From Longimicrobiales bacterium (GTDB lineage: Bacteria; Gemmatimonadota; Gemmatimonadetes; Longimicrobiales; Gaopeijiaceae): DNA of 64,000 nt. The position numbers and the translations under genes are program-made. Location: contig OZ241892.1 in the NCBI GenBank assembly GCA_965203485.1, forward strand, positions 288,001 to 352,000, read 5' to 3'. The notes under the pieces were generated by a model. It made no database searches and was not told where the DNA came from. It saw nothing but the letters and a program-made list of their open reading frames with translations. This document shows positions 3,329 to 41,256 of this stretch, in pieces. The number at the start of each line of letters is the position of its first letter. Within the stretch, counting starts at the first letter, position 1.

Positions 3329-3378
3329 GAAGCTGCGTCAGCAAGAAGCTGCGTCAACAAAGGGGGGGGGGGGGGGGG
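3329..3378. repeat. 16-bp tandem repeat (gaagctgcgtca[g/a]caa x2) followed by G17 homopolymer (3362-3378)
   Basis: Direct reading; lies between divergent genes. Confidence 0.9.
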
Positions 3379-24417: not shown

Positions 24418-25599
24418 CTAATGACGTTCGATGGCGCCGAAGTCGATTGCGACGACCAGCGTGTCGGCCGCCGGGTCGTGCTCGAAGCGGATGAATCCGA
24501 ACTTGTCCAAGCGTTCGAGTTCCCGCACGAAGGTGCGGCGCGTGACGTGGCGGTAGACCTCCATCACGAACGGCGACTGCAAGAGTTCCGCCAGCCGGAC
24601 CTGCCGCGAGGGTTCGGCCGCGAAGGGGTCCTCCGGCTCCGTCTCTTCCAGCAGATAAAGGAGCAGGCTGTATTCCCGGCGGTTGAGGAGCTTGCGGCGC
24701 TTCCCGACTCTCTCGCTGGTCGCTCTCGTCATCATGTCGCGGTAGACCACGCGGTTCAGCTTCGTCTGGATGAAGTTGTTGATGCCGTGAAGTTCGTGGG
24801 CGAAGCCTTCGAGGCCGAACTCCACGAACGGCCCGAGGTCGAACGGTTGCCGGCAACGGCATTCCTGCAGCAGCATCTTGTACTTGTCGCCGTGGACGTA
24901 GAAGAAGTTGGAGAGGCCGTAGAAGCCGTGCACGTTGTAGCCGCCCTGGTAGAGCACGGCGGCCTCCACGAGGCGCGACACGCGGCCGTTTCCGTCGCCG
25001 AACGGATGGATGGTGACCAGAAAGAAGTGCGCGAGCAACGCGCGGACGACCGGATGTTCGGAGCGCATCCGGGGCGACCTGAGGAATTCCACGAACTCGG
25101 CCGTCAGCCGCTCGATCCGGGGATGAGGGGCGCCGCGATGGACCCCGCCCAAGGCCGTGGTTCCCACCTGCACGTCGTGGGTCCGAAGCCGGCCCGGGAG
25201 GTTGTTGATTTCGTCGGACTCGATCGTCATGCGCCGGTGCATGTGGAGGATGTCGTTCGTGGACAGCGGCGGGGCGCCGTGGCCGAACCGCGACCGCACC
25301 CACTCCTGGGCGTCCGCGGCGTTGCGCACCTGCTGCCGCTCCACCGTGCGAGCGGCCTCCCGGGCCTCGCCGTCCAGGACCCGGGCGACCTGCTGTTCGG
25401 AGAGCGGGTTGCCTTCGAGTCCGGTCGTGCCGCGGATCGCCCGGATGCGGTTGAGCCGGTCGAGCCGCTCCTTCCAAGCCGGCGGAAGGACGAGAACGCG
25501 CGCCGCCTCCCGGTACGCCTCGATCTGCACCAGCAAGCGTCGGAGCTTGGGGGCCGCCGTGTCGAGGCGGTAGTCGAACCGAAAGCAGTCCCAGTCCAT
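24418..25599 (-). CDS. Fic family protein
   Basis: TIHPFGDGNGRVSR canonical Fic motif; TTGLEGN; RBS gaaggag before ATG 25599. Confidence 0.9.
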   Translation of the reverse strand: MDWDCFRFDYRLDTAAPKLRRLLVQIEAYREAARVLVLPPAWKERLDRLNRIRAIRGTTGLEGNPLSEQQVARVLDGEAREAARTVERQQVRNAADAQEWVRSRFGHGAPPLSTNDILHMHRRMTIESDEINNLPGRLRTHDVQVGTTALGGVHRGAPHPRIERLTAEFVEFLRSPRMRSEHPVVRALLAHFFLVTIHPFGDGNGRVSRLVEAAVLYQGGYNVHGFYGLSNFFYVHGDKYKMLLQECRCRQPFDLGPFVEFGLEGFAHELHGINNFIQTKLNRVVYRDMMTRATSERVGKRRKLLNRREYSLLLYLLEETEPEDPFAAEPSRQVRLAELLQSPFVMEVYRHVTRRTFVRELERLDKFGFIRFEHDPAADTLVVAIDFGAIERH

Positions 25600-25656
25600 C
25601 GAGTGCTCCTTCTTTGACACGTTCTTTGGGATCGTAAGTCCTTATTGTAGCGCAAG

Positions 25657-28600
25657 TTACGATTCTACACCATCGATACGCGGCGTGTTTCTTGACCAGC
25701 TTCTTGCCCGCCGACCATCGGCCTCGGGCTCGATTCCCAGCCAGCAGATCAGCTCTACTTCGCTCGGCTCGATGACAGGCAGCAGCGGGGGCGGCCGCAG
25801 GGGCTCCAGTCCCGTGCTCAGGACTTGGTTGATCAAGCGCTGCGACAGTGCGGGCCCGCGAAGGTCCCTGCGTGAGCCGGATGCGGACGGGTCACCGTCT
25901 TCCGGCGGCTGATCGGCCGAGCCGAACCACTTTCGCAGCATCATCTCTTCCCGCCGTGGCCAGGGCGACTCCAGCACTTCGACGGCATGGCGCACGCGGT
26001 CGTCCGGCGCGTCGGGCGGCGGATTGTCCCGGATGAAGGCCGCGACCCGCCGGTTCAGAGGCCGAAGCCTGGGCTGGAGGTTGGCGGGGTCGGTCTCGCG
26101 CATCCACCGTTCCCAGATGTCCTGGCGGGCCAACTCCCAGAAGTCGAAGGCGCGTTCCTGGACTACCGGGGGGAACCAAGTCGGCGTGTCCTCTTCGCAC
26201 TCGACGAGACGAAGGCAGGCGCCAACCTCGGCTTCGACGGGAGCGGAGCGGTCGGGCGACCAGTCGGCGGTGGCCGGAACAAAGCGCAGATAGGTTCGCT
26301 CCAGCTTGGCGCCATGGCCGACGACGGCACAGAAGAAGATGCCCCGGCGCGCTCCCCTCGTCATCCCGGAGCCGGTCTTCCAAGGCATCTCCACGATGCG
26401 ACGGCGGTTGGTGTGGAGCGCCTTGCGCAACGTCTGGCGGTACTCTTCGCCAGTCTGGGCCGCCCCTGCCGTCCCGCCGCGCTCGAACAGCGAGGCGTCC
26501 TCTCGCAATAGCTTCTCGATTTCTTCCCGAGTCTCCGTGAAGACTTGGCCGCCGTGGGCCGCTCCTTCAATGGGAGCCGCCACGCCCACGCTGGCCGCCG
26601 CCATCGCAAGCTTCGCGAGGATGCGTTGCTCGAGGTTGAGCAACCGGTCGAGCCGATCCACGGGAAAGATCGTGCGGAGGAAGACGCGACGATGCGGGCT
26701 GCCGATCCGGTCGATGCGGCCGTGCCGCTGGACGAGACGCATCGGGTTCCACGGCATGTCGAAGTTGACTACGTGACGGCACTGCTGAAGGTTGACGCCC
26801 TCGGCCAGCACGTCGGTGGAGACCAGGATGTCGAAGCGGTCTGCATCGCTCCCGGCCGGGGCACCCATGGACAGAGGAGCGAACCCCTGGACCGCTTGCA
26901 GGCGGGACTCGGCTTCGTGGCTGGAGCCCGTTGCCGTCGCGACGCGGCCGCGGTAGGGCTCCAATCCGGGGTGCTCTTCTACGGCGTCCGCCAAGTAGCG
27001 GCGTATCCAGTCCACCGTGTCTGCGAAGGACGAGAACACCAGGACCTTGCGCTTCTGGCGCTCGTCGCCGGAGTGACTGGCCTCGGCCTCCGCCTGCGCG
27101 GCGATATCCGCCAAGGCGCCTGCCAGGGCCCTCAGCTTCGGGTCTTGCTCGATCGTGATCTTGGCCGCGTCGGCGACTAGCGCCCGGAGAAGACTGCGAT
27201 CCCGCTCCACTTGGCGCCGAAGTCGTGCAGCATCGTATAGGGCTGCGTCAGCGTAGAGTCGTTCGTCGGGGTCGCCGTCCGCCAACGCCAGCAACTCCTT
27301 GATGCCGGTCTCGTCGTCGGCCGAGAGTTCGCTGAGGAAGGTGGTGGTCACCACGTATCCGGCGTCCAACGCATCCAAGAACCTGTCGTGGGTGGCGGCC
27401 ATGCGCTCAGCGGTCGTTCTGAAGGCGTGCGCCGAGGACTCGAAGCGCTTCAGCAGGCCCGATCGCAGCAGTCCCACCACGGCGCGAGCGCGGGCGTTCT
27501 CTTCCGGGTCGCCGGTGTCCCGCAAGTATGCGGCAGGCGTGTAGCGTGCAAAGGCGATCGCTTTCCCGCCGTCGGGGTCCAGCGCCGCCTCCAAACGGTC
27601 GAAGAAGCCGGGCAGGCGCTTGTCCAGCGCATAGCGAACCGTGACCGCTCGGGGCGATGGAAACTCGATGTGGCGGGGCTGGCCGTCGGGTCCCGGTATC
27701 GTGTCGCCTGCGTAATGCTTGCGCACGAACTGGCGGGTGCGCTTGACGGTCGTGGCGTCGATGATCGGGTACAGGAGATCCGGACTCAAGTTGGACGGAT
27801 CCTCGCGCATGGCCGCCTCGAACCGGCCGCGAATCGAGAGAATCCCCCGATCCGCCAGATGCGCGTCTTGGCGAAGGAAGAAGCGGACCAGGTGGTACAG
27901 GTCCCAAAGTGAGTTGTTGACCGGCGTTGCCGTGAGCAACAGCAAGTCGCGTCGGCGTCCGAAGAGAAGACGCCTCAGCGTGGCGGCCCGCGTCGGCGCG
28001 TCCGGATTGCGGTAGTTGTGAGCTTCGTCCACGACGACGAGCTGGTACTCGTCCAACGGGCGCTGCAGATGTTGGCGGCCGGGGCGGTCGGCGTCCGGCG
28101 TCAACAGTTGCGCGTCGTTGGCCAGCTGCTCGTACGACAGGGACTCGGCGAAGAGCTGGTATTGGGACAGGAACTTCTTCCAGGTCGTGTCGCGCAACGC
28201 GGCAGGGCAGATCAAGAGCACGCGTTGCCGCCGGTCGCGGTAGAGCTGAAGGACCTCGCCTGCGATGAAGGTCTTGCCCAGCCCTACTTCGTCGGCGACG
28301 ATCGCCCCGCCCGTTGCATTGATCAAACGTAGCGCCCGCGCCACGCCGTGCTTCTGGAAGCTCGTCAGCGGCAGATTGTCGTCGGCCTCCGCGTCCTTGT
28401 CGACTTCGTCGCCGTACAGTTGCCAGAGCACGCGAAGGAACACGTCCCAAGGCGTGCGCGGCAACAAGAGTTCCTCGAAGAGGTCGACCAGGTCGTAGGG
28501 GTCGGCGTCGTCCCAGAGGTCGTCGAACCAGTGCTTGGCCTTTTCTACGGTGGCGGTGTCGTCGCGACCCAGGCTCAGTTCGCGGTTGGCGGTCAGGCCG

Positions 28601-29136
28601 GCGGCGGTCAGGTTGGAAGAACCGGCAAGGACGCCTCCCGTCAGGATGTACGCCTTGGCGTGAAGGAACGCCTTCTCGTACCGGCGAACCTCGACGTTGC
28701 CGGACTTCAGCGCCCCGACCAGCGTGGCCAAGCTGGCCCGTCCGGCGTAGGTGAACGGCAACCGGTCCCGCTCTCGCCGAAGTTCCGTCGTCATACGGGC
28801 AAGGCACTCGCCGACGCAACGCCGGTCGAAGACGGCCTTTGGTTCGCCTAGTTGTCGTCGGCAAGGGGGGCGGCCTTGCGCCGCCAAGTCGGCGCCGAGC
28901 AAGAGGCGTACCATAGGGACTGCGGCCAGCCCGTCCGCGATCTGCGCGAAGCCCGCCGGGCTGAAGTAGGCGGTGGCGATCCGCGCCTCGCTGGGCGCCG
29001 CGGTCTCCGGCGCGCTGGAGGACTCGGGAACAGGGGTTGCCACGCCCAACAACGCTCCGAGAGCGTGCGCGAGGGTGTTGCCGTCAAGGTTGTCGACGAA
29101 GGTCGGAAACTGTTCCGCCGACGCCGATGCCGTCAT
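25657..29136 (-). CDS. PLD-nuclease + SNF2-family helicase fusion
   Basis: FLHAKAY...GSSNLT (PLD); ADEVGLGKT, DEAH, TATP, LAEGVNLQ, QRHGRIDRIG. Confidence 0.9.
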   Translation of the reverse strand: MTASASAEQFPTFVDNLDGNTLAHALGALLGVATPVPESSSAPETAAPSEARIATAYFSPAGFAQIADGLAAVPMVRLLLGADLAAQGRPPCRRQLGEPKAVFDRRCVGECLARMTTELRRERDRLPFTYAGRASLATLVGALKSGNVEVRRYEKAFLHAKAYILTGGVLAGSSNLTAAGLTANRELSLGRDDTATVEKAKHWFDDLWDDADPYDLVDLFEELLLPRTPWDVFLRVLWQLYGDEVDKDAEADDNLPLTSFQKHGVARALRLINATGGAIVADEVGLGKTFIAGEVLQLYRDRRQRVLLICPAALRDTTWKKFLSQYQLFAESLSYEQLANDAQLLTPDADRPGRQHLQRPLDEYQLVVVDEAHNYRNPDAPTRAATLRRLLFGRRRDLLLLTATPVNNSLWDLYHLVRFFLRQDAHLADRGILSIRGRFEAAMREDPSNLSPDLLYPIIDATTVKRTRQFVRKHYAGDTIPGPDGQPRHIEFPSPRAVTVRYALDKRLPGFFDRLEAALDPDGGKAIAFARYTPAAYLRDTGDPEENARARAVVGLLRSGLLKRFESSAHAFRTTAERMAATHDRFLDALDAGYVVTTTFLSELSADDETGIKELLALADGDPDERLYADAALYDAARLRRQVERDRSLLRALVADAAKITIEQDPKLRALAGALADIAAQAEAEASHSGDERQKRKVLVFSSFADTVDWIRRYLADAVEEHPGLEPYRGRVATATGSSHEAESRLQAVQGFAPLSMGAPAGSDADRFDILVSTDVLAEGVNLQQCRHVVNFDMPWNPMRLVQRHGRIDRIGSPHRRVFLRTIFPVDRLDRLLNLEQRILAKLAMAAASVGVAAPIEGAAHGGQVFTETREEIEKLLREDASLFERGGTAGAAQTGEEYRQTLRKALHTNRRRIVEMPWKTGSGMTRGARRGIFFCAVVGHGAKLERTYLRFVPATADWSPDRSAPVEAEVGACLRLVECEEDTPTWFPPVVQERAFDFWELARQDIWERWMRETDPANLQPRLRPLNRRVAAFIRDNPPPDAPDDRVRHAVEVLESPWPRREEMMLRKWFGSADQPPEDGDPSASGSRRDLRGPALSQRLINQVLSTGLEPLRPPPLLPVIEPSEVELICWLGIEPEADGRRARSWSRNTPRIDGVES

Positions 29137-29630
29137 GATCCAGCCAGGACGAACCGGGCACCGGCGCGTTCCAACATGTCGAAGGGTCTGTACCACTCGA
29201 CGTTAAAGGCTTCGCACGCGTTGGGGATGGGGACGCGCCTCTTGGCCATCTTGGCAGGCTTCTCCATCGTGACGACGGCATGTCCGTGAGCCATTGCGTG
29301 AGCCACCAGGAGCGAGTCGGCCCCCGCCAGGAACGTACCTACCGCTTTGTCGAGGTACTGCTGACCTCCAGCCCATGCTCGGACTCGCGAGTGAGTTCGC
29401 TCAACCAACGGATCGGCATCCAAGAACATCTTCCTGCCCAATCGCTTGGCCCATTGCGCCAGCTGATCGTCCCCGATCGTGAGCTCCCCGAGCACGGCGC
29501 CGACGCTGTACACGAGTCCCTCGGCGTTGCCGTGCTCCAACCACTCCCAGAACCCCGGGCAGACGTTTGGTCGATAATAGTCGTTTGTAGCCGAAATGAA
29601 GACGCTTGTGTCAAGCAGATAACGCATCAA
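29133..29630 (-). CDS. DUF4411 PIN-like protein (putative toxin)
   Basis: YLLDTSVFI, PGFWEWL, ADSLLVAHA..VVTME, IPNACEAFNV. Confidence 0.85.
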   Translation of the reverse strand: MMRYLLDTSVFISATNDYYRPNVCPGFWEWLEHGNAEGLVYSVGAVLGELTIGDDQLAQWAKRLGRKMFLDADPLVERTHSRVRAWAGGQQYLDKAVGTFLAGADSLLVAHAMAHGHAVVTMEKPAKMAKRRVPIPNACEAFNVEWYRPFDMLERAGARFVLAGS

Positions 29631-30805
29631 CGCAGCCCAAGCTCGGTCTTGATCTTGTCGAACGTCTGCTGCTTCTTGATGGCCAGCAGTCGAAACGCCT
29701 CCGTATACAGCGTCCGCCCCGAAAGGGTGTCCGCAATCAGGTCGTACGCGAAACGCTCTCCAATCCGCGTCATCTGTGTTCGAAAGAAATTGCCTCCCGA
29801 ACTGGACCGTGCCTGGGCGTGCCTTCTCAATTCTCCAACGTAGGCTTCTCTAAAGATGTTGGCCGACAAGTATCCGGCATCGCGGAGACGCCGCAGAACG
29901 ACCAGCGAACTGACTTTGAAGTGGGTTGCGAGGCGTTGCAATTTTCGTTGCATCTCTTCGCTCTTCTCGTATTGCTGGCGCAAGGCGTCCAAGGGAACTA
30001 GCAGTTCCGCCGCTACCTGGTTGCACCATTTCTCGGTTCGATGGCTTGTAGCAGACTTTAGCGTAGTGTTCGATAGACCCGTGTTGCCCAGCCAGATGTG
30101 AGCCAGTTCGTGAGCGAGGGTGAACATCTGGGCCGCCTTGGCGTCGGCGCCGTTGACGAAGACGAGGGGCGCCAGTTCGTCGGATAGCGCGAAGCCCCGG
30201 AACTCGTCCACGTCCAGTGGCCGCGACGTGTTGTTTCCCACGACGCCGCTGATCATGACCAGCACGCCCTTGGCGTCGGCGCGGTCGGCGAAGCGACGGA
30301 CGGCCAAGGTCCAGTTGGCGACGTCGCGCCGGTCCTCTACGCGGAAGTCCAGCGTGGACGACATCTGCCGGGCGACCTCGGCGGGGTCGTCGTCCAAGCT
30401 GGCCGAGCCCACAAAATCGACGGGATCGTGTTCCTCTTCCAGGGCGTACTCGTGGTACCAGTCTTGCCTGTCTTGGCACAGGTGGATCGTGTCCAGCAGG
30501 TGCAGACTAGGCTTCCTGGGCTGCTTGCTGCCGACCGTGCGGAAGTCGGCGATGTCCAGCTCGTCCTTCAGGGGACCGCCGGAGAAGAGCGCTCCGAACG
30601 GCGTGTAGGTCGCCCTGGCGAAGCGCTCGAGCTGCCGGTACGTGGGCTTGAGCGTGCCGGCCTCCCACTCCCGGTACTTGGGAAAGCGCCGCTCGATCGT
30701 CTCCACGTCCTTCCCCGAGCGTTCCTGCGCCCATCGGAGCGTCGCCGGTTCTACCGAGACTCGGTAGGGACCGCGTTGCGGCGATTCGTTGATGGGCGTA
30801 GTCAT
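29627..30805 (-). CDS. XRE-HTH + ImmA/IrrE Zn-metallopeptidase
   Basis: WEAGTLKPTYRQLE, EFRGFAL, FTLAHELAH, EKWCNQVAAELL. Confidence 0.9.
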   Translation of the reverse strand: MTTPINESPQRGPYRVSVEPATLRWAQERSGKDVETIERRFPKYREWEAGTLKPTYRQLERFARATYTPFGALFSGGPLKDELDIADFRTVGSKQPRKPSLHLLDTIHLCQDRQDWYHEYALEEEHDPVDFVGSASLDDDPAEVARQMSSTLDFRVEDRRDVANWTLAVRRFADRADAKGVLVMISGVVGNNTSRPLDVDEFRGFALSDELAPLVFVNGADAKAAQMFTLAHELAHIWLGNTGLSNTTLKSATSHRTEKWCNQVAAELLVPLDALRQQYEKSEEMQRKLQRLATHFKVSSLVVLRRLRDAGYLSANIFREAYVGELRRHAQARSSSGGNFFRTQMTRIGERFAYDLIADTLSGRTLYTEAFRLLAIKKQQTFDKIKTELGLR

Positions 30806-30845: not shown

Positions 30846-33800
30846 TCAAGGTAACCGGCCGGGAGGGCGGAGAAAGTGCTTCAGGACGGCCTCCAGCCGG
30901 TCGTGGTAGTCCCAGCCCTCGTGGAAGGTCTCGAAGATGTGGACCAGCTGGCGCTCGGTCAGGCTGTAGCAGTGGGCGACGACAGCGTCGAGTTGGTGGA
31001 TCAGGTCCTGCTTCTCGTCCTCTGCGAGCGGTCCCCAGTCCACGCCGACCGCCTTGGCCCATTCGGCGAAGCGGTCGTCCGGGCAGGCGAGGCGGCCGGC
31101 GAGTTCGACAGTGCGCTTCCAAAGGGGGTCGTTCCGACCTGGACGGGGGATAGGGAAGGGGTTGATGACGAAGTAGGTGACGCCTGTCTCGACGAACCGG
31201 CGGGCGTACCAGTCGAGGGGGATGGAGCATAAGACGCCCAGCAGAAACGCTTGGTCCTTCTCGTCGCCGCGAGGCCAAAGGAAGTAGGGTGCCTTGTGCG
31301 CGACGAACACCTTGGGCGGAAGGAGGCAGGCGATGATGGTGCGTGGGTCCGTTGCACGCGCCACGTCTCGGAAGGCGATTCTCGGCCGGTAAACGGGCAG
31401 TGTTGATTGATCCCGAAGGTGGCCTATTGAAAATTCCTTATGCGCGCTGTCGCGTCGGTTCTTCGCGGCCCTAATCCGCTTCTTCTGCAACCAATCCAGA
31501 ACGGGAGTTGGCTTGGCCCAGGCGTAGGGCGCACCCTTGTCCGGGTCCCACAAGTCGAAGGACGCGCCCTTGTACACGGGCCAGTATTCCAACTCCAACT
31601 CGAAGCTCGTCATGTGCTTCTGTGCCGTCGCGTGGAGTTCCGTGATCGGTCGGGCACGCCATCGGACGGTTTCTCGAACACCATGAATGCCTTCTGGTTC
31701 GTGGCGTCCATCTCGCGGTCGGGACGAGCGCGCCAGCCTCTTGTGTCTGTCCCCCCTCCCCCCCCCCCCCCCCCCCCCCGCCTATAATCATGTCCTCGCG
31801 TGTGTCAAGACGCGGCGCTGCGGACATTTGGGCGAACACGCTCGCCGATTCGTCGGTCGGTAGCAGGGGCAGCGATGCAACATCGTTCCATTGCTCGATG
31901 TCGTGTCGATAGAACACTAGAGGCTCCCTGGCCACACCGGCTCTGAACGCGTGTAGGTCCGGATAAGGCCCGCTCATGCGCAACCGAGATTCTCCTTCAT
32001 CTCCACGTCGGGCTATTGCCACGAGCACAATCGTCCACTGGGGCGTGACACTCTCGAATACCCAGCCCGCACGGTTCTTGAGGGCGACCGCGTCCATAGT
32101 GCTCGCCTCGCCAAACACGGCCTTTCGAAACTCCTGCGATCCCTTGGCTTGCAACGCGCTCCTCGGCAACACGACGCCGATTCTTCCGTCATCCTCGGCT
32201 GTCAGTCGCCAGAATCGCCAGCAGAACGCCTTGTACACGTCGGCGTCGCCGGTTCCCATGCCGGGGAAGTCGCCTCCCAGCAGTGCCCTTCGCACGTCGG
32301 CGTTCTCCTTGACCTCGGCGTCCAATGCGGCGACCAAGTCGGGGCGTTCCCGGCGGAACCGCGCCTTCTCGGCCTCCTGGTCGCGCTGGGACATGCCGCG
32401 CAACCCGGGGAAATGTCGAGCCCAGAACCCATGTTCCTCCACCTTCGGCTTCTTCCACGGCGGATTGCCCAAAATCACGTCGAAGCCGGAGCGGTCGCGC
32501 AAGAAGACTTCCGGAAACGCCACCGGGAAATGCAACGCGACGAGGTCGGCCAGCTCTTGCGCCGCCACGGCCGCTTCGGGCACCGCTTCCAGGTTCTCGA
32601 TGCGATCCTCCAAGTCCTGGAACTGAAATCCCGTGATCATCTTCCTGTCCGAGATGGGCTGGGCGGTGATCAGGTCGCACAGCGCCTTGGCGGCCGCTAC
32701 CGCTTCGTTGGCCTCCTGCTGCGCCTCCCGTGCCTGGCGAACTTCGGCCACCGTGGCGTCGTTCAGGTTGGCGAGCCGGCGCAACGGCTTGGCGGCCTTG
32801 CCGAGCAACGACTCGGCGTCGCATGGAAACAGCGGAGTGTTTGTGGCGTCGAGCTTGGCCTTGATCTCGCCCACCGTTCCAATGCCGACGAGCGAGTTGC
32901 CGCGAACCAAATTGCGGTCGAGAAACGAGAGCGGGAGACCGGGCACGAACGTGTGAATCCAGACGGCCAAGCGCGCCAGCTGGACGGAAATGTTGTTCAG
33001 GTCCACGCCGTAAACGCACCGCCGGGCGATCAGGCGGCGCAACAGCTGGCCGTCTTCAATCAGTGACGCGCCCACCGCATCGTCGTCGTCCAATGCTGTT
33101 CGAGCGGCTTGGCGAAGCCCAGCCAGTTCGTTGCGCACGCCCGGCAGATCGCGACCGACTAGGAAGTCGGCCATGCCCTTCTCGATGCGGTCGATGGCAC
33201 CGACCAGGAAATGGCCCGATCCCATGGCGATGTCGGCGACCCGGAAGTCGAAGAAGCTCTCGGCGGCGGTGGCGTCGTCCATGGCGTCCAAGCGTCGGAA
33301 GTGGTCCTTCAGCGCGGGCGCCAGCGCCTTGTCCAGCAAGTGCTCCACGGCGAAGGACTTCGTGTAGTAGCTGCCCGTGAACTTGCGAACGCCGGAACGG
33401 TTGTGGAGGTAGGTCTCTCCCCTCTTGACAACGACTCGCGCATTCGGCTTGGCGGGCATGTAGGTGCCCTTGGCGTCCACCGTCAAGTCCGCGGTTGCAA
33501 CGGCCAGCTCGGATTCCAGCAAGCCCTCGTAAATCGTGCCGAACTCGCGCACGCCCAGAGATCTGAAGTCCACCGGACCTAGTCCGCCTTCGTGCGTCTC
33601 GATGATCAGGAGGTGACGCAAGGCGGGCTCGAAGGACTCGTTGGACAGCGAGACGCTGGCGAGTTCCGCGCCCACATCCGACACTTCGGGATCATTGGCG
33701 AAGAGTGCGCCGTCGTATTCGGGCACACCCCACTCGGGATTGCCGGCGGCCACTGCTTCGCACAAGCGGGCCACTTCCTGCCAATGAGCGTGGCCCGGAG

Positions 33801-35016
33801 CCACGGGCGTGTTGTCCCGCGCTTGCTTGGCCAGCTCCTGCGCCTTCTGCTTGAGCGACCGGCGACGGTAGGCGTCGTTGGTTCGATAGGGAAGCAGGTC
33901 GCAATCCTCCGCGTACGCGATGAAGAGAAGGCGAAACAGCACCGTCAGAGCCATGTCGTAGGTACGGGCCAGCTCCTGCGCCGTCGTGGAGCCGAGCGGC
34001 CTTGCGTCAGCGATGCCCCGGGCGAGCTTGGGCACCACTTGGTCGTAGATGCGTTCGCGCAACCGCTCGGCCAAGTCGCCGGCGAAGCGCCGAGACTCGT
34101 CGAGGATTTGGTCCAAGCTGCCGTTTGGCGCCAGCGCGTCGGCCGAGAAGATCAGCCACAAGTACGCCAAGTCGGAGTCGGCCAACAGCGGCGCTTGGCA
34201 CTCCACGTAGGTTTCGGTGCGGCCGCGCCTGCCGACGCCGCGGTCGGTGGCCGTCGAGTAGAGGCGCAAGCGGTTGCCTTGGACCATCACCACCCAGGAC
34301 AGGTCTTCGTCGTCGGCCTTCTTGAGCGCGTAGGTGACCGGCGACAGGCTGTTGAAGCGCGGATTGCCGGCCTCGGCCGATTCACGATCGCGCAAGAGGA
34401 CGGCCAAGGCCGTGCGTCGTCGGCCGTCGTCGCCGCTCGTAAGGAGGTGCGTCAGGTTGTCCAGCGGGACGACGTGGAAGCCCAGCGCGCCCAGCAGGCC
34501 GTGCGCGTGTGCGCCGACCGCCTTCTTGGCCTTCTTGCCGGCGGCGGCCCAGTCGGTTCGGTTGCGAACGCCGTGACGCAGGTTGTGGAGGGCCAGCAGG
34601 CCCTCGTTGTGGATGCCCGGCAGATCCGTCTCCAGCGACGGCAGGGCTTGCGAGAGGAAGCGCAGAGCCGAGTGACGGTCGGGTTGTGCCAGAGCTTCGC
34701 GGCAAATCCGCTCGACCCGTTCGGCGTCCAAGCGAAGTCGGACGGCGGGCTTCTCGCCGGACGGGCCGCAGAGGGCGGCGCCCTCGGGGTGAAGAACCAC
34801 CAGGAGCACGGGCGCGGCACGTCCCGCACGCCGGATCTTGTGAGCACCGGCGACGGCTGATCGGGACGGGATGGTGGGTGTGCGGGCGACCACCACTTCC
34901 AAGCCGTGGTCGCCCGGCCCGACGAATAGGCCGCCGAATCGAGAGCCGAGACGCGGGTCCGGCGACCAGGGACGCCGGACGAATTCAGGGAGGAAGTCCA
35001 AGGATGAGGCGTTCAC
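30846..35016 (-). CDS. Large N6-adenine DNA methyltransferase (Eco57I/type IIL-like), frameshifted at poly-G tract
   Basis: GSYYT, DIAMGSGHFL, GVDLN, ILGNPPW. The C-terminal part (ORF 30846-31613: AFRDVARATDPRT) joins in frame if the G22 tract loses one G. GTG start inferred. Confidence 0.85.
31751..31779. repeat. Homopolymer C6-T-C22 (G22-A-G6 on coding strand)
   Basis: Direct reading. Confidence 0.9.
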
Positions 35017-35042: not shown

Positions 35043-35693
35043 TTATTGTTGACAAGCCCCATCTCCTTCTTGGCCCATGAGGAGCAGCTGGCCGTCGTCC
35101 CGCCGCCGCGTCACGCCGATGAACGCGTTCAGCTTGGACGCGCTCGGAAACACCCACTTGCCGAGCCCCCACGATCCGCCCGCGTCTTGTCCCTTGGGCG
35201 AGATGCCGACGCTTCTGAACAAGCCCCAGAAGTGGTTGTTCTTGGCCCGCGGGTCGTTGGCGCGGACATCGCCTCGCAAGCCTATTGTGCCGAAGTCCTC
35301 CACGATCAGAAACGGCATGGCGCGGTCGAACAGCGACTTGCGCTCCTCAAGATCGCTATTGTCTCCGCGCGCGGTGCGCTGGGCATCCACCACTGCGCAG
35401 AGGTGCGGCTTCAGGCCCGTCAAGTAGCACGTTGCCCGACTGGGTTCCAGCGCGTCGTCCGAGCCGCTGATCACAAAGCGGACCCGCACGGGTCCGTCCC
35501 CAGCTCTGGCGTCCAGCGAATTCTGAATCGACTCCCTGACGAAGCGCTTGGGCAGGTCGGGACTGAAGAACTCGCCTTGCACGGGGTTCTCGTTGATCTC
35601 CGACGGCGACATGACGCGGAAGCGCCAATGGGGCGCGCGCTGGGCCTCGGACGGCTTACGACGATCGAGAGGCGCCCGGGACTGAGGCATCAT
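35043..35693 (-). pseudogene. Truncated GHKL (HATPase-like) protein, N-terminal domain only
   Basis: RESIQNSLDA, IVEDFGTIGL, GGSWGLGK; ends abruptly after LLLMGQ. Confidence 0.6.
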
Positions 35694-35793
35694 GTATCGG
35701 CGGTCGCGCATTCGGTCTTGTCTCCCATGCATTCGGCCGTTGGCAAGCGAGAGACGACCGGGTTCCACGGGCCGCATCTTCCCGGCGGCAAGA

Positions 35794-37377
35794 TCACATC
35801 CCCCAAACGGCAATCTCTGCGCCCGTCCGGGTGCTTCGCCGCTCGCGGAACACCTTGTCGTCCCAGTTGCGATCCTCGCTCCGGTCGAAGACGACCAAAT
35901 GGCCCCCCTCCGCACCGTAGCGGTCCATGTAGGCCGCCGTCTGCTCTACACCGTCGGCCACCGTGCGCTCCAAGCCCCGTCTCTCGTGGTGGACCTTGCA
36001 CTCCACCACGTACTTGCGCACCCGCTCGCCCTGCGGCCACGCGACCAGCACGTCGGTGCGCCCGCCGCCCAGCGCGTACTCGCGGTCGATCCGCCCGCCG
36101 CTGTTGACGACCCGCTGCAGGAACGCCTGCAAGAGCAACTGCGGTCCCGCCTCCCTGAACCCGTAGCGTTCCGTCCAGTGCTCGGAGTTCTCGCGGTAGA
36201 ACTCCTGGAACGCTCCCAACAACTTGTCCAAGCGCAGAGCGCCATCGGCGTCCACGTACCAAGCCGGGTCGTGCGGCAGATCGTCTTGGGCAAGCCACGT
36301 CAGCTCCCTGGGGACGACTTCGGCGTAGATCGGGTTCGCCATGCGGATCGGGGGATCGCGGGCGATCAGCCCCAGGTCCCGGACGTACTCCACGTCGCGC
36401 GCGGTGTAGCTGGACTCGGGGGCGCCGGCGAGGATCGGCTCGACCACTCGCCACACCCGGTCCTCCTGAAGCTTGTCCGTCAGCTGGTCCAGGTGAGTGT
36501 CGCGGCGCCGGATCAGCGCTTCGCGGGCGTCCATCACGTCGTCCTCGGCCACCGGCCGCGACCGGTCCGCCGCCAAGTCGCCGCGGAAGCAGGTCTCGTA
36601 GGCGAGCGCGTTGACCAGCCAGGGCTGGCCCTGGGTCTGCGTCCAAACCGCCTCCAGCGCGCCGTCGGCGAACGGTTGCCCCGTCTCGTCGGTGTGCTGA
36701 CCAAGGAGCTCGTGCACCTCGTCCCGAGAAAAGTCGCCCAGGCGCAGCGACTCCGCCTTGACGTTGAACGCGCTGCCGCCGGCCACCATGGTATTGGCGG
36801 AGGCAGAATGAATGCGGTAGTCCCGCACGTCCCGCACGCCGCACAGGACCACGCTCTGCGGGAAGCCTTGGGGACGCATGTCGTAGCCGGCCCGCAACTG
36901 CCGCAGCACGGCCAGCAGCGAGTCGCCCACCAGCGCGTCGATCTCGTCGATCAGCAGCACCAGCGGATCCGGCGCGGCGCGGGCCCAGCGGCCGAGCGCG
37001 TCGCGCAGGGCGCTGTGGCCGCCCGCCTTGGCCAGAACGGCCGGCCATGCCTCTTCCAGGTAGTCGTCCCCAAGCGTGTCCCGCGCCCGTCCGGCCAGCT
37101 CGTTGAGCACTGTGCGGATCGCTGCTTCGACGTCTTCGCGCGCCGTCTGCGCCCCCTCCACGTTGACGTATACGCAACGGCAACCGCCCTCCGCGTTCAG
37201 CAGGTCCTTGAGCGCGAGGAGAGCGGACGTCTTGCCTGTCTGCCGGGGCGCGTGAAGCACAAAGTACTGCTTGCGGTCGATCAGTTGCCGGAGTTCGGCG
37301 AGACCGAGCCTGGCCAGCGGCGGAATGCGGTAGTGGTCCTCCGCCACCACGGGGCCGGACGTGTTGAAGCGGCGCAT
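35794..37377 (-). CDS. AAA-family ATPase with PD-(D/E)XK-like C-terminus (paralogue of 9932-11542)
   Basis: MRRFNTSGP, HAPRQTGKTS, LLIDEID, VVECK. Confidence 0.85.
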   Translation of the reverse strand: MRRFNTSGPVVAEDHYRIPPLARLGLAELRQLIDRKQYFVLHAPRQTGKTSALLALKDLLNAEGGCRCVYVNVEGAQTAREDVEAAIRTVLNELAGRARDTLGDDYLEEAWPAVLAKAGGHSALRDALGRWARAAPDPLVLLIDEIDALVGDSLLAVLRQLRAGYDMRPQGFPQSVVLCGVRDVRDYRIHSASANTMVAGGSAFNVKAESLRLGDFSRDEVHELLGQHTDETGQPFADGALEAVWTQTQGQPWLVNALAYETCFRGDLAADRSRPVAEDDVMDAREALIRRRDTHLDQLTDKLQEDRVWRVVEPILAGAPESSYTARDVEYVRDLGLIARDPPIRMANPIYAEVVPRELTWLAQDDLPHDPAWYVDADGALRLDKLLGAFQEFYRENSEHWTERYGFREAGPQLLLQAFLQRVVNSGGRIDREYALGGGRTDVLVAWPQGERVRKYVVECKVHHERRGLERTVADGVEQTAAYMDRYGAEGGHLVVFDRSEDRNWDDKVFRERRSTRTGAEIAVWGM

Positions 37378-37446
37378 TCCCAACGATAACCCAGCGGCCC
37401 TGCTCGGCCCCGCTTCTGCTGGCGCTGGCGACGATCGAGGGAGGCG

Positions 37447-38736
37447 CTAGGCCGGGGCTCCGTTGCTCGCGCCCGCGCAGTGCGCTTGGTGGGCGGGCAG
37501 AACGACCGTGAAGTAAGTGCGCCCCTCGTCGAACTCGAAGCGGGGCGGGGGCGAGCCGTTGCGGGCCATGGCCTCGTGGATCTTGTCGAGGCCGGTCAGG
37601 CGGGCTTCCGCCAGCTCCAGGTCCTTCAGGAACTCGCCGACGCGCCGGTTGCGGGCGGGGATGTTTGGCTTGGGCGCTCCTGGCTCGAAGTGCTCCGGCT
37701 CGATGCCCGGCAACGGGCCCGGATAGCTGGTGACCGTCATGCGTTCGGGGTAGACGTAGACCTTGACGGGTTCCGGCGCATCGGCCTCGTAGCTGCGGTG
37801 GTAGACGGCGTTGACGAGGGCCTCGCGAACCGCCGCGGCCGGCCAGCGGGCGGTGCGCCCGGCGTAGGGCGTGTCGGCGCGCTTTTCCACGCGAACGTCC
37901 GACAGGCTCTCCAGGTGCGCGAGGCAGCGCCGCACTTGGTCGGCCAAGCCGCCGCGAAAGACGGTTTCGGCCAACGTGTCGCCGGCCGGGCCGTCGGGGA
38001 AGTGGGCCAGCTCGGTCGTCGCGCCGCGAAACCATCGCGAGGGGTCGTTCGAGAAGAAGAGAATTCCCACGTTGCGGGGCGTGTCGTGGTCGTTCGCGCG
38101 GGCGGCGATGCGCATTCGGCGGAAGATTTCGCGCGGGTCGGCCAGCTCTCGCAAGCCGCTCCCCACGTCCCGGAGGAACTCGCGCACCAGGGCTTCGCGG
38201 AGATCGTCCATGCTGGCGCCGAGCGCGCGGCGGTCGTCCCAGGGCGTTCTCGCGGTTTGGCGCATCAGGGCCGGCAGAAGACCGTTGGCCGCGGCGTCCA
38301 CCGTCTCGGCGCCCAGGCGAATCCAGAACTTCCGCCCGCGCTTTCGTCCGGCGGGCGCGCTGTGCGGCCGCGTCTCGCTCGCCGGCGCCCAAATCACGAG
38401 CACGTTGCGCCCGTCGGCCGTCTCGGGCGACACCACGGGCTGGTAGGCCGGGTCGATTCGGTTGCAGGCGCCTCGAATCCACTTGGCCGCCGCTTGCATC
38501 TCGCAGTCCGAGAGGCCGCGCGGGGGCAGCACGGCGCGTCCGCCCTGCTCGGCCACGCCCAGCACGAGGTAGCCGCCGTTCAGGTGAAGATGGTCGTTCG
38601 CAAAGGCGCAGATGGTGGCCAGCGCTTGCAGGCCCGTCGTCTCCGGGTCCCACCGCGCCTTCAGCTCGAGGCGGGCCGACTCGGTCCGGCGTCCGCCCAG
38701 CAGAGCGTGCAAGTTGGTGGGGAGAAGCGCGCTCAC
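37447..38736 (-). CDS. Schlafen/AlbA_2 + HATPase_c_4 domain protein
   Basis: ESARLELK..W, TICAFAN..GGYLVLGV, REALVNAVYHRSY, RNRRVGEFLKDL. Confidence 0.85.
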   Translation of the reverse strand: MSALLPTNLHALLGGRRTESARLELKARWDPETTGLQALATICAFANDHLHLNGGYLVLGVAEQGGRAVLPPRGLSDCEMQAAAKWIRGACNRIDPAYQPVVSPETADGRNVLVIWAPASETRPHSAPAGRKRGRKFWIRLGAETVDAAANGLLPALMRQTARTPWDDRRALGASMDDLREALVREFLRDVGSGLRELADPREIFRRMRIAARANDHDTPRNVGILFFSNDPSRWFRGATTELAHFPDGPAGDTLAETVFRGGLADQVRRCLAHLESLSDVRVEKRADTPYAGRTARWPAAAVREALVNAVYHRSYEADAPEPVKVYVYPERMTVTSYPGPLPGIEPEHFEPGAPKPNIPARNRRVGEFLKDLELAEARLTGLDKIHEAMARNGSPPPRFEFDEGRTYFTVVLPAHQAHCAGASNGAPA

Positions 38737-38950: not shown

Positions 38951-39961
38951 CTACTGCTCCGGATTGCCCGTTGCCAGACCGGCCAGCCGGCGCGCGATGT
39001 CGCGGACCCGGCGCCGCAAGTCCTCCGGCCCTTCCACGACGGCTTCTCCTCCGTAGCGAAGCACGTGGCGGGCCAGCCAATCGGGGTCTGCGACGCTGTG
39101 GCACACGGTTACGCTGCCGTCGCCGTTGTCTTCCATGGAAATGCTGCGGTACGACGCCCTCTCTCTGATCCAGCGACCGACGCGGGGCGAATAGCGCACG
39201 TAGGCCCGGCGGCTCACCGACGCGAAGAGCAGCTCGTCGAGCCCGCCGTCCAGGTATGGGCCGGGGTCGAAGTCGCTCGGGATGTCGAACGTCCCCTCGT
39301 CCAGCGACGCGTGAAGAATCCTGTCCATCCTGAAGATTCGCATGCCTTGCGATACGACGCAGTGGCCGACGACGTACCAAGTCTCGTCCGAGAAGACGAC
39401 CAGGTAAGGATGGACGACGCGGCGCGACTCCTCGCCGGCGGCCAGCTTCAGATAGCCCATGACGCATGGACGGCGAGCGTAGGCGGCGGCCACGACCGTC
39501 CTGTGCACCTCCGTGCGGCCCATGCGACGGTCGGAGAGCGTCAGGCCCGGAGCCGAGCCCAGAGCCTCGCCGGGGTCCCGGCCGCCGGCAACGAGAGACG
39601 GGCCGAGGCGAAGCAGGTCCTCCGCGTCCGGCGCCCGCGATCCTTGGGCGGGCTCGCCCCGCAAGGCCAGCGCGAGGCAAAGGTGTTCGTGCCCCGATAG
39701 GCGAAGGGGGCGGTCCAGAAAGCTGGTGTGCTCTACCCGGACGCGGTCGTTGTCGAGGAACACGAGAATGTCTCCCGGCCAGCCGCCGGGCCGGTAGTCT
39801 CCTCTCGTGGTGAGTTCCCGGAGGTCGTCGAGGACGCCCGCTTCGCAGGTCCCGAGGTTGCGGGCCAACGACGCGACCTCCGCGCCGCCCTCCCGGCTTG
39901 CCGCCGCGATGATGTGCGCCAGCCGCTCGAAGCGGGTGCGGGCGGAGGCGGCCTCAGCCAC
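38951..39961 (-). CDS. pafC: PafC-like WYL-domain transcriptional regulator
   Basis: HTH, LDRPLRLS..E...L, RVVHPY...WYVVGHC...RIFRMDRI, WCX (LRYGGEAVVEGP). Confidence 0.8.
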   Translation of the reverse strand: MAEAASARTRFERLAHIIAAASREGGAEVASLARNLGTCEAGVLDDLRELTTRGDYRPGGWPGDILVFLDNDRVRVEHTSFLDRPLRLSGHEHLCLALALRGEPAQGSRAPDAEDLLRLGPSLVAGGRDPGEALGSAPGLTLSDRRMGRTEVHRTVVAAAYARRPCVMGYLKLAAGEESRRVVHPYLVVFSDETWYVVGHCVVSQGMRIFRMDRILHASLDEGTFDIPSDFDPGPYLDGGLDELLFASVSRRAYVRYSPRVGRWIRERASYRSISMEDNGDGSVTVCHSVADPDWLARHVLRYGGEAVVEGPEDLRRRVRDIARRLAGLATGNPEQ

Positions 39962-41066
39962 TGCGGGAAGCGGAAGTTCCGCCGTGAGCTTCGGCGACGG
40001 CGGCGGCCATCTCTTGGAAGCGCCGCCGAAAGGGACCGGGCTTCTCGATTCGGGCCTGTCCCGCGAGACCCAGCGTCCAGCGCGCGAGCCGGTCGCGGTC
40101 CCGCACGCGAAACCGGCGCAGCGAAGAGCCGTCGTCGCGCTCCAGCACGAGTTCGCCGTGGCCGTTGCGGTCCGCCCACTCGGAGCACGGGAAGTCGAAG
40201 TGCACGATCGCTTCTTCTTCGGCCGCCTCGGGTCCCATCTCCCAGACCTGCCTGTTCGCGTAGCCGCTCAGGTCGAAGTCGGCGGGAAGCTCGAAGTCGG
40301 GCGCACCGGGCGATTTCTGGTTGGCGCGCACGGTGCTCATTCGGCCGACGCGAAACACGCGCACGTCGTCGCGGACTTCGTCGTGTCCCACCAAGTACCA
40401 ACGTCCGAGCTCGAAGAGGAGCCCGTAGGGCCGAACCCGCCGCTCGATCTCGCCGGCGCGCGTCATCGCCTTGTAGCTGAAGGACAGCTTCTTCTTGCGC
40501 GAAACCGCGTCGAAGAGACGAGCGAGCGCCCTCGATGCGCGTTCGGCTTCGGCCGATGCCGCATACCGCACCGGAGAGTCGCCCGATCCGCCGGGCATGA
40601 GGTCGAACGACAGCTTCCGAAAGGCCGACTCCGCATGGCTGGCCAGGGGAAAGCCGGGCAACGTCGCGAGTTCGCGAAGCCCGCCCAAGGCCTGGAACGC
40701 CTCGTCGGGCGACACCACGGCGGTTCCGGGCGCTCTGCAGGCCGGGTGGCCCCGCGGCTTGGGCCCGCGCTTGGCGACTCGCAGCCGGGGCAGGTAGAAG
40801 TCGCGGGCCAGCCGATAGCCGGCCGCGTCGCTCGATTCGCCGCGAACGGGACCGACGACCGTTTCGATGGCTATCCCCATGGCCCGCAACTCGTCCTTGT
40901 CCCGCTCGAACATGCGGCTCGCCGCGGCCCTTTCTTGCGGCGCTCCGTTCAGTCCACGCGAGTAGGCCGGGAGTTCCCGCCAAAGAACTTCCTTGCTCAC
41001 CGGAAATCTCCGGGAGGCGAGGAAGGCCACGAGATCGATCCAGCGCTGAAGCTTGGTTGGTTCCAT
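39954..41066 (-). CDS. pafB: PafB-like WYL-domain transcriptional regulator
   Basis: KLQRWIDLV, RMFERDKDELRAMGI, GRWYLVGHD..RDDVRVFRVGR. Confidence 0.85.
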   Translation of the reverse strand: MEPTKLQRWIDLVAFLASRRFPVSKEVLWRELPAYSRGLNGAPQERAAASRMFERDKDELRAMGIAIETVVGPVRGESSDAAGYRLARDFYLPRLRVAKRGPKPRGHPACRAPGTAVVSPDEAFQALGGLRELATLPGFPLASHAESAFRKLSFDLMPGGSGDSPVRYAASAEAERASRALARLFDAVSRKKKLSFSYKAMTRAGEIERRVRPYGLLFELGRWYLVGHDEVRDDVRVFRVGRMSTVRANQKSPGAPDFELPADFDLSGYANRQVWEMGPEAAEEEAIVHFDFPCSEWADRNGHGELVLERDDGSSLRRFRVRDRDRLARWTLGLAGQARIEKPGPFRRRFQEMAAAVAEAHGGTSASRSG

Positions 41067-41133
41067 GTGGGCGGTGCGTCTCGCGGAGGTGGTGCGCCTC
41101 CGGGCAAAGCCATTGCAGGCAGGGCAACCTTCA

Positions 41134-41155
41134 AAGATAAGGACCGCCTGTGACA
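41134..41155 (-). promoter_or_regulatory. PafBC/RecA-NDp-type promoter facing pafB-pafC
   Basis: TGTCA-cag-8nt(gcggtcct)-TATCTT. Confidence 0.6.
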
Positions 41156-41170
41156 CCCGTCCGGCGGACG

Positions 41171-41256
41171 CGGCCTCACGCAGGAGGAGGCGGGCCGGCG
41201 CCCGTGCAGCTCCCGGACGCAACTCGAGAACACGGCCTCACGCGGGAGGAGGCGGG
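41171..41256. repeat. 24-bp direct repeat x2 (cggcctcacgc[a/g]ggaggaggcggg), 62-bp period
   Basis: Copies at 41171-41194 and 41233-41256. Confidence 0.8.

Follow-up and report, generated by a model that had tools for sequence, protein, structure and literature searches.

Can one restriction-modification gene hold two versions of the same recognition loop in different reading frames, and leave the choice between them to a simple repeat? The question is raised by a locus in a window of 64,000 nucleotides (contig OZ241892.1, positions 288,001 to 352,000, assembly GCA_965203485.1) from a Longimicrobiales bacterium. There, at the junction between the methyltransferase (MTase) part and the target-recognition domain (TRD) of a large N6-adenine methylase gene, a long G tract is followed by two diverged copies of a short cassette, here called A and B. 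The restriction-modification specificity switches known to us proceed by inversion, by domain movement or by gain and loss of whole recognition domains.

Layout of the tract and the twin cassettes

Read on the minus strand, segment A (from 31735) gives WRARPDREMDATNQKAFMVFEKPS and segment B (from 31661) gives WRARPITELHATAQKHMTSFELEL. The copies stand in tandem in different frames, at an offset of 74 nt (2 mod 3), and share 41 of 74 bases and 12 of 24 residues. When A was compared with the 7.1 million six-frame windows of 24 residues in the whole genome, its top match other than itself was B (BLOSUM62 score 52, against 44 for the runner-up). The homology, spacing and frame difference that a first, sequence-only reading had reported for these segments are confirmed.

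The tract is G22 as assembled. In silico, a length of G21 or G24 brings B into frame and opens the full-length reading frame, G20 or G23 leads through A to a stop 41 codons later, and G22 reads neither cassette. These phases agree with the two that had been predicted from the sequence, namely B within a full-length protein at G21 and A followed by termination at G23. The A-frame stop overlaps an ATG that opens the last 255 residues of the gene, an overlap missed by the earlier reading. The features of the locus are collected in Table 1.

Table 1. Features of the methylase locus and its surroundings, in window coordinates.
Feature	Position	Strand	Basis
Fic protein	24418-25620	-	
PLD(HKD)-SNF2 helicase gene, usual downstream partner	25657..29196	-	Pfam PLDc_2, SNF2, Helicase_C
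DUF4411 gene, cargo	29133..29630	-	Pfam
HTH + IrrE/ImmA-type peptidase gene, cargo between two core genes	29627..30805	-	Pfam Peptidase_M78
255-aa TRD remainder: fused in B phase, likely a separate chain in A phase	30846..31613	-	
ATGA: A-frame stop (31612-31610) overlapping the ATG (31613) of the C-terminal piece	31610..31613	-	sequence
Cassette B: T..H state, second copy, same frame as the TRD remainder	31588..31661	-	
Cassette B, predicted reading residues	T 31643-31641, H 31634-31632	-	
Cassette A: predicted first TRD strand and base-reading loop, R..D state	31662..31735	-	pN/pS in own frame
Cassette A, predicted reading residues	R 31717-31715, D 31708-31706	-	
G22 tract (C22 at these positions), then a base A and G6 (to 31751): putative frame selector at the MTase-TRD junction	31758..31779	-	sequence; in silico phases
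5' part of large gamma-class N6-adenine methyltransferase gene, encoding an N-terminal domain, a helical part and the MTase	31780..35016	-	
Partial PDC-M33A-like ORF	35046-35915	-	
AAA + PD-(D/E)XK protein	35794-37383	-	
Schlafen-AlbA protein	37447-38736	-	
Two adjacent ORFs (422 and 336 aa)	38951-41222	-	by eye

Tract lengths were taken from assemblies and may include errors. Homopolymers are prone to error and contigs break at the tract, and the sequence-only reading had itself named an assembly chimera of two strains as one finding that would overturn it. Yet a single contig covers positions 31000-31741 with no difference in each of four runs (at most two samples of one study, possibly the source of the assembly), and no joint skipping 74 nt was found in the contigs of those runs. 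In a separate study, a sponge metagenome, both copies lie on one contig (run X1) from a relative, which is about 90% identical and differs by 21 substitutions but by no gap. Among seven different runs, five of which cover both copies (X2 and X5 do not), no joint collapsing A and B was seen. As the layout is also carried by at least 11 other genomes, the joining of alleles from two strains by the assembly is almost inconceivable as its origin.

The host methylase and its neighbourhood

The probable start of the methylase, inferred from homologue N-termini, is the GTG at 35016, within an ORF open from 35172. The protein carries GSGHF and NPPW motifs, matches Pfam Eco57I (E 1e-12) and is matched over both halves by the PADLOC model REase_MTase_IIG PDLC03620. 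In a scan of seven locus proteins, this Type IIG model scored E 6e-231 against 6e-67 for DISARM DrmMI, and the PLD-SNF2 partner matched HKD+Snf2 (2.5e-49) above DrmD (1.4e-40). With its gamma-class N6 MTase and, behind it in the same gene, a C-terminal TRD, the protein has the domain order of Type IIG/IIL enzymes. Pfam gave no TRD family for the C-terminal piece and no nuclease match in the methylase, and no D..(E/D)xK pattern was found among the columns at least 80% conserved in the first 330 residues. Since no conserved nuclease motif is seen in the N-terminal domain, restriction may fall to the PLD-SNF2 protein, whose gene lies downstream of the methylase in 31 of 41 loci, most of the misses having short flanks. 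This partner is the likely restriction component, and the host resembles a methylase with a PLD-SNF2 nuclease-helicase as its partner more than an established self-cutting Type IIG enzyme. The peptidase gene lying between the two core genes is present in 7 of the 41 loci.

The Fic, PDC-M33A-like, AAA + PD-(D/E)XK and Schlafen-AlbA neighbours suggest a defence island, and the methylase gene likely serves phage defence. The pair of ORFs beyond them, by eye, presumably resembles a WYL-domain regulator pair. The nearest relatives are from Longimicrobiales, two of them in the same genus.

Recurrence in other genomes

At the DNA level, repeat, A and B recur together in at least 5 of 23 genome loci (L001-L005), four of them from Longimicrobiales, with G8-G26 and a 74-nt offset, and one from Acidobacteriota, with (AGCC)n and an 83-nt offset. 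A paralogous subfamily, WRCF (about 35-40% identical), shows the tandem design in at least 6 of 20 fetched regions, which were chosen by hand, some for their short open frames, so that this ratio is not a frequency. The WRCF tandems have their copies 49 nt apart and the cassette types in reverse order, behind a repeat of (CCCA)n, (CCAG)n, C13 or G12 or behind a decayed run. Across the relatives, the position of the tract is occupied by G8-G26, C13, (AGCC)n, (CCAG)30 or (CCCA)7-16.

The layout is visible in 23 of 120 protein matches to the MTase half: 11 proteins end in the A phase, six are full-length in the B phase and six are in the third frame, the window's own protein being one of the latter. 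Nine further proteins stop at the G run. These phases were read by hand and some of the proteins duplicate the DNA loci, where the A phase is found in five, the B phase in four and the third in two, the window counted. The offsets of 74, 77 and 83 nt all leave a remainder of 2 when divided by 3, and two copies in frame with each other were found in none of 374 proteins. In 28 metagenome loci, three viral loci and 15 other WRARP/WRCF-type regions, there is a single cassette or the motif is not covered.

A quick tree (about 230 MTase columns; 70 rows, with eight skipped; 30 single-cassette matches sampled), in which origins within the WRARP group are not countable, separates the WRCF and WRARP groups with full support. 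Together with the different offset and the reversed order, this separation argues for at least two origins of the layout. Three single-cassette homologues (L059, L079 and L128) also have repeats just upstream of the TRD: a 12-nt repeat, (ACAG)11 and (CT)n. Repeats keep arising in this gene family.

The G000 genome (3.56 Mb) is rich in candidate phase-variable tracts, with 46 G/C runs of at least 10 bases (41 of at least 15) and no A/T run of 10. The window holds a second one, G17 at 3362-3378. A paralogous methylase of the WRCF subfamily (G000:C1:2028230-2032023, minus strand) has a single T/H-like cassette, AELH, and an in-frame G20 within its MTase domain, likely a plain on/off switch; a PLD-SNF2 homologue lies near it at 2034608-2037181. 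Further along (G000:C1:2327773-2332623), five G24-G27 tracts with shared flanks and a spacing of about 925 bp mark a repeated unit with its own tract in each copy, and the same region has two C20-C25 tracts on the other strand.

Selection on cassette A

If A were used only as a linker in the frame of B, changes would be favoured elsewhere than at the third positions of its own codons. In a small set of five kin genomes, the first 20 codons of A have 13 variable columns, of which 9 fall on third positions in the frame of A itself, and pN/pS is 0.16 in this frame as against 1.43 and 1.94 in the other two. The corresponding values are 0.16 for B and 0.36 for the downstream TRD, and in the WRCF subfamily 0.36 for A' and 0.15 for B'. 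A is thus most simply explained as selected as protein in its own frame within the tandem; by this codon pattern, it is under purifying selection. Against a functional A stands one locus (L003:5927-6001), which has a nonsense codon within A; it is in the A phase with a short G8 tract, possibly as a decaying switch.

What the loop is predicted to read

The sequence-only reading had assigned the region to the TRD, as probable, and had proposed to align homologues and to model the structure. The assignment is supported. In the alignment, positions 7 and 10 of the cassette carry R/D (31), a small residue (T, A, S or M) with H (53) or QG/N (25) in the 109 parsed of 120 single-cassette homologues, and mixed pairs do not occur. 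A and B carry two of these alternative covarying states, R..D and T..H, and tandem loci with both copies readable always have one copy of the D type and one of the H type, in opposite order in the two subfamilies.

The model of B with the C-terminal part has a pLDDT of 94. Sequence searches of solved structures returned no relative, so that the mapping of residues rests on fold comparison, where the best matches are M.BseCI (Z 14.9), CamA (14.1), PglX (13.7), BrxX (12.3) and MmeI (12.2), in agreement with a wide search. Residue 1 of the TRD model aligns to MmeI 636 (rmsd 4.3, 190 aligned), BrxX 675 (rmsd 3.4, 186 aligned) and CamA 340 (rmsd 3.4, 181 aligned). Counted on from this first aligned residue only, on the assumption that the ten residues contain no gap, residues 7 and 10 correspond to MmeI Tyr642/Lys645, BrxX Lys681/Asp684 and CamA Gln346/Ile349. 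The first pair is described as specifying position 2 of TCCRAC, which mutation changed (PMC4833311), the second as reading G2 and its partner C in GGTAAG (bioRxiv 2024.04.12.589305) and the third as contacting A3 of CAAAAA (PMC8187626). All three contacted positions are 3 bp upstream of the methylated adenine (-3). As three structures agree, a chance register is unlikely.

The modelling supports A and B as the first strand and loop of the TRD, with residues 7 and 10 predicted to contact DNA at position -3. Cassette A (R..D) is predicted to read G there, like BrxX Lys681/Asp684; the base that B (T..H) would read is less certain.

The proposed switch and its phases

We propose that the length of the G tract picks A, B or neither, and that it likely switches the methylase between two predicted targets differing at -3, or off. 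We give this reading a probability of about 0.6. It is founded on observed properties of the locus and its relatives: the layout and its conservation, own-frame selection on both copies, the covarying states and the fold.

In the B phase (G21, G24), the enzyme would be a single chain in which the tract and the out-of-frame A form a floppy loop of about 38 residues and B (T..H) provides the reading loop. The model of a relative naturally in this phase (L005, pLDDT 87) has the tract and out-of-frame A as a loop at 532-570, with pLDDT below 50, and B as an ordered strand. In the A phase (G20, G23), a first chain would end with A (R..D) and a 17-residue tail. The 255-residue TRD remainder, whose ATG overlaps the stop, would likely be made by translational coupling and assemble with this first chain; it begins just past the reading residues of B. 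The third phase (G22, as assembled) would have no loop and likely be inactive. Beyond contact with DNA, the proposal supposes slippage of the tract in vivo, coupling and assembly of the two chains, activity of the resulting enzyme and restriction by the PLD-SNF2 partner.

How the A state could be active had been left open by the sequence-only reading; the overlap of stop and ATG makes a two-chain enzyme likely. Natural and engineered two-chain methylases are on record (PMC3404938). Of 12 A-phase proteins, 11 stop at the ATGA and the remaining one a single codon further on. A start within 20 residues of the KGxSF anchor is shared by 86 of the top 120 short relatives. Among 90 stand-alone C-terminal pieces, at least 62 begin with ATGA, the codon that follows Met starting with A, compared with 1 of 108 full-length homologues. 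At the locus itself Thr has taken the place of the conserved Met, but ATG is the codon before it, so that a start still overlaps the stop. The overlap is also found in 26 of 48 single-cassette homologues, and other single-cassette loci have MT or MK as well. Since it is common without the tandem, the excess of ATGA in the C-terminal pieces may be a clade trait with an overstated P value, and with this control the overlap no longer counts as stand-alone evidence. The ATG is preceded by weak Shine-Dalgarno pairing, at -1.5 to -3.9 kcal/mol, where the median of 44 single-cassette loci is -1.05; two control positions that were not start codons were left out of this comparison. A GTG 5 nt before the stop, just ahead of the R..D of B, is the likeliest second start in the WRCF subfamily; the second chain would then carry the reading residues of B too, which speaks against the split model.

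The idea that A and B are alternative specificity determinants, chosen by slippage and/or recombination, had already been put forward from the sequence. Its first part gains from the covarying states and the own-frame selection. As to the second, own-frame selection on A makes slippage the likelier everyday switch, and recombination-like collapse is met only as rare A-only alleles.

Alternative explanations

The specificity switch could also operate with an A state made of one chain or of a mixed complex. Either a frameshift or hop near the stop would join A to the TRD remainder, or slippage of RNA polymerase would produce A-, B- and off-frame messages in one cell, so that A chains borrow the TRD from other products. 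Both forms would explain the selection on A equally well and need no reinitiation, and frameshifted repeat-bearing mod constructs are described as leaking expression (bioRxiv 10.64898/2026.04.01.715767). We nevertheless consider this version of the switch unlikely: inspection of the six DNA copies by eye showed no slippery sequence conserved around the stop or where A ends, and recoding would demand opposite shifts in the two subfamilies, since their offsets are 2 and 1 mod 3.

Two further explanations were considered. In one, A is kept as a stored allele: the tract simply turns B on or off, and A comes into use only once a 74-nt deletion between the copies has taken B out. Such collapse by deletion does seem to occur, as two apparent A-only alleles were met: in P0222, which falls into the same 90% cluster as the tandem B-phase protein P0245, a G run and A lead straight into the TRD remainder, and in the quick tree P0348, an allele with a single A-type cassette, branches among tandem loci. 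P0222 might, however, be an assembly collapse; the two copies share 55% of their bases, with perfect stretches of about 6 nt, and no collapsing joint was seen in the runs described above. Being one-way, the deletion cannot keep A under purifying selection within tandem lineages, and a stored allele is distinctly unlikely. In the other, the gene is a plain phase-variable on/off gene, where A is a leftover duplicate or the A-phase chain has another role, such as a non-methylating DNA binder or a decoy. The lack of 255 TRD residues in the A-phase chain, the stop in A of L003 and the repeats of single-cassette homologues (L059, L079, L128 and the G000 paralogue) would all fit. But the codon-periodic conservation of A equals that of B, A always carries the opposite reading state to B, and the layout arose at least twice, which makes a plain on/off gene very unlikely.

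Comparison with known systems

Repeat-driven switching of specificity is already known from Helicobacter pylori Hpy99XIV (PMC3936762) and from NgoAV (PMC7383803). Hpy99XIV (JHP1272) and HpyAXVI (HP1353-54), described by Krebes et al. (PMC3936762), are also single-gene gamma adenine methylases with a homopolymer frame change, in which a duplicated TRD piece substitutes for its twin and the motif changes. Here too, a simple repeat within the coding sequence selects the frame, and three phases are found across genomes. In the H. pylori enzymes, an extra domain is added behind a TRD that is already complete, each state consists of one chain and the change affects positions -1/-2. In the present locus, by contrast, two 24-residue copies of the first loop stand at the start of the TRD in mutually exclusive frames, with a predicted effect at position -3. 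The duplicate is the first TRD strand and loop, upstream of the remaining 255 residues, not an appended domain, and one state would lack these 255 residues if no second chain provided them. Repeat-containing Type I hsdS genes (NgoAV, with full, truncated and extended HsdS; Atack et al., PMC7383803) resemble the locus in that a mid-gene repeat gives two specificities and the short state works by chain assembly. They differ in dropping or adding whole TRDs and in the self-dimerisation of the truncated chain, and no out-of-frame loop duplicate is described for them.

The fold relatives MmeI, BrxX/PglX, CamA, M.BseCI, DrdV and M.TaqI also join an MTase to a TaqI-like TRD fold, and in MmeI, BrxX and CamA residues i and i+3 of the first TRD loop read -3; they differ in sequence (9-17% identity) and in having a single loop. 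The MmeI pair is described as altered by engineering (PMC4833311), whereas here both versions are encoded. M.AquI and M.EcoHK31I (PMC3404938) likewise obtain an active methylase from two polypeptides, AquI being split in the variable region, but they are C5 methylases, their split is constant and no repeat selects an alternative. Type-2 BREX-related systems also pair an N6 methylase with an HKD-SNF2 effector, but are described as needing DUF499, DUF3780 and a TRD nested in the MTase (PMC12839542). Membership of this group was rejected, as the TRD is C-terminal to the MTase and there is no DUF499 at the locus; matches to the DUF499 ATPase were found only at 1.11 Mb and 2.93 Mb of C1, and the window is at 0.29-0.35 Mb.

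The sequence-only reading did not recognise the layout as described, and in the literature searched we likewise found no description of it; most subscription journals and supplements were outside this search, and REBASE-type supplementary tables could hold motifs for the family.

Significance of the twin cassettes

On balance, we favour seeing in this gene a bacterial equivalent of mutually exclusive exons, in which the repeat picks a fused enzyme or a split one coupled by stop and start, reversibly among A, B and off, without a recombinase and with at least two evolutionary origins. If this is true, some 75 extra bases and a repeat are enough to swap one target base reversibly, and a population could hedge against phages methylated with one motif or depleted for it. 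Annotation would label such genes as broken, and second chains may account for many of the stand-alone 255-residue 'hypothetical proteins' that appear among the relatives. Each locus would then constitute a matched natural pair of specificities, making the recognition code of the TRD loop (R..D, T..H and QG..N at -3) directly testable.
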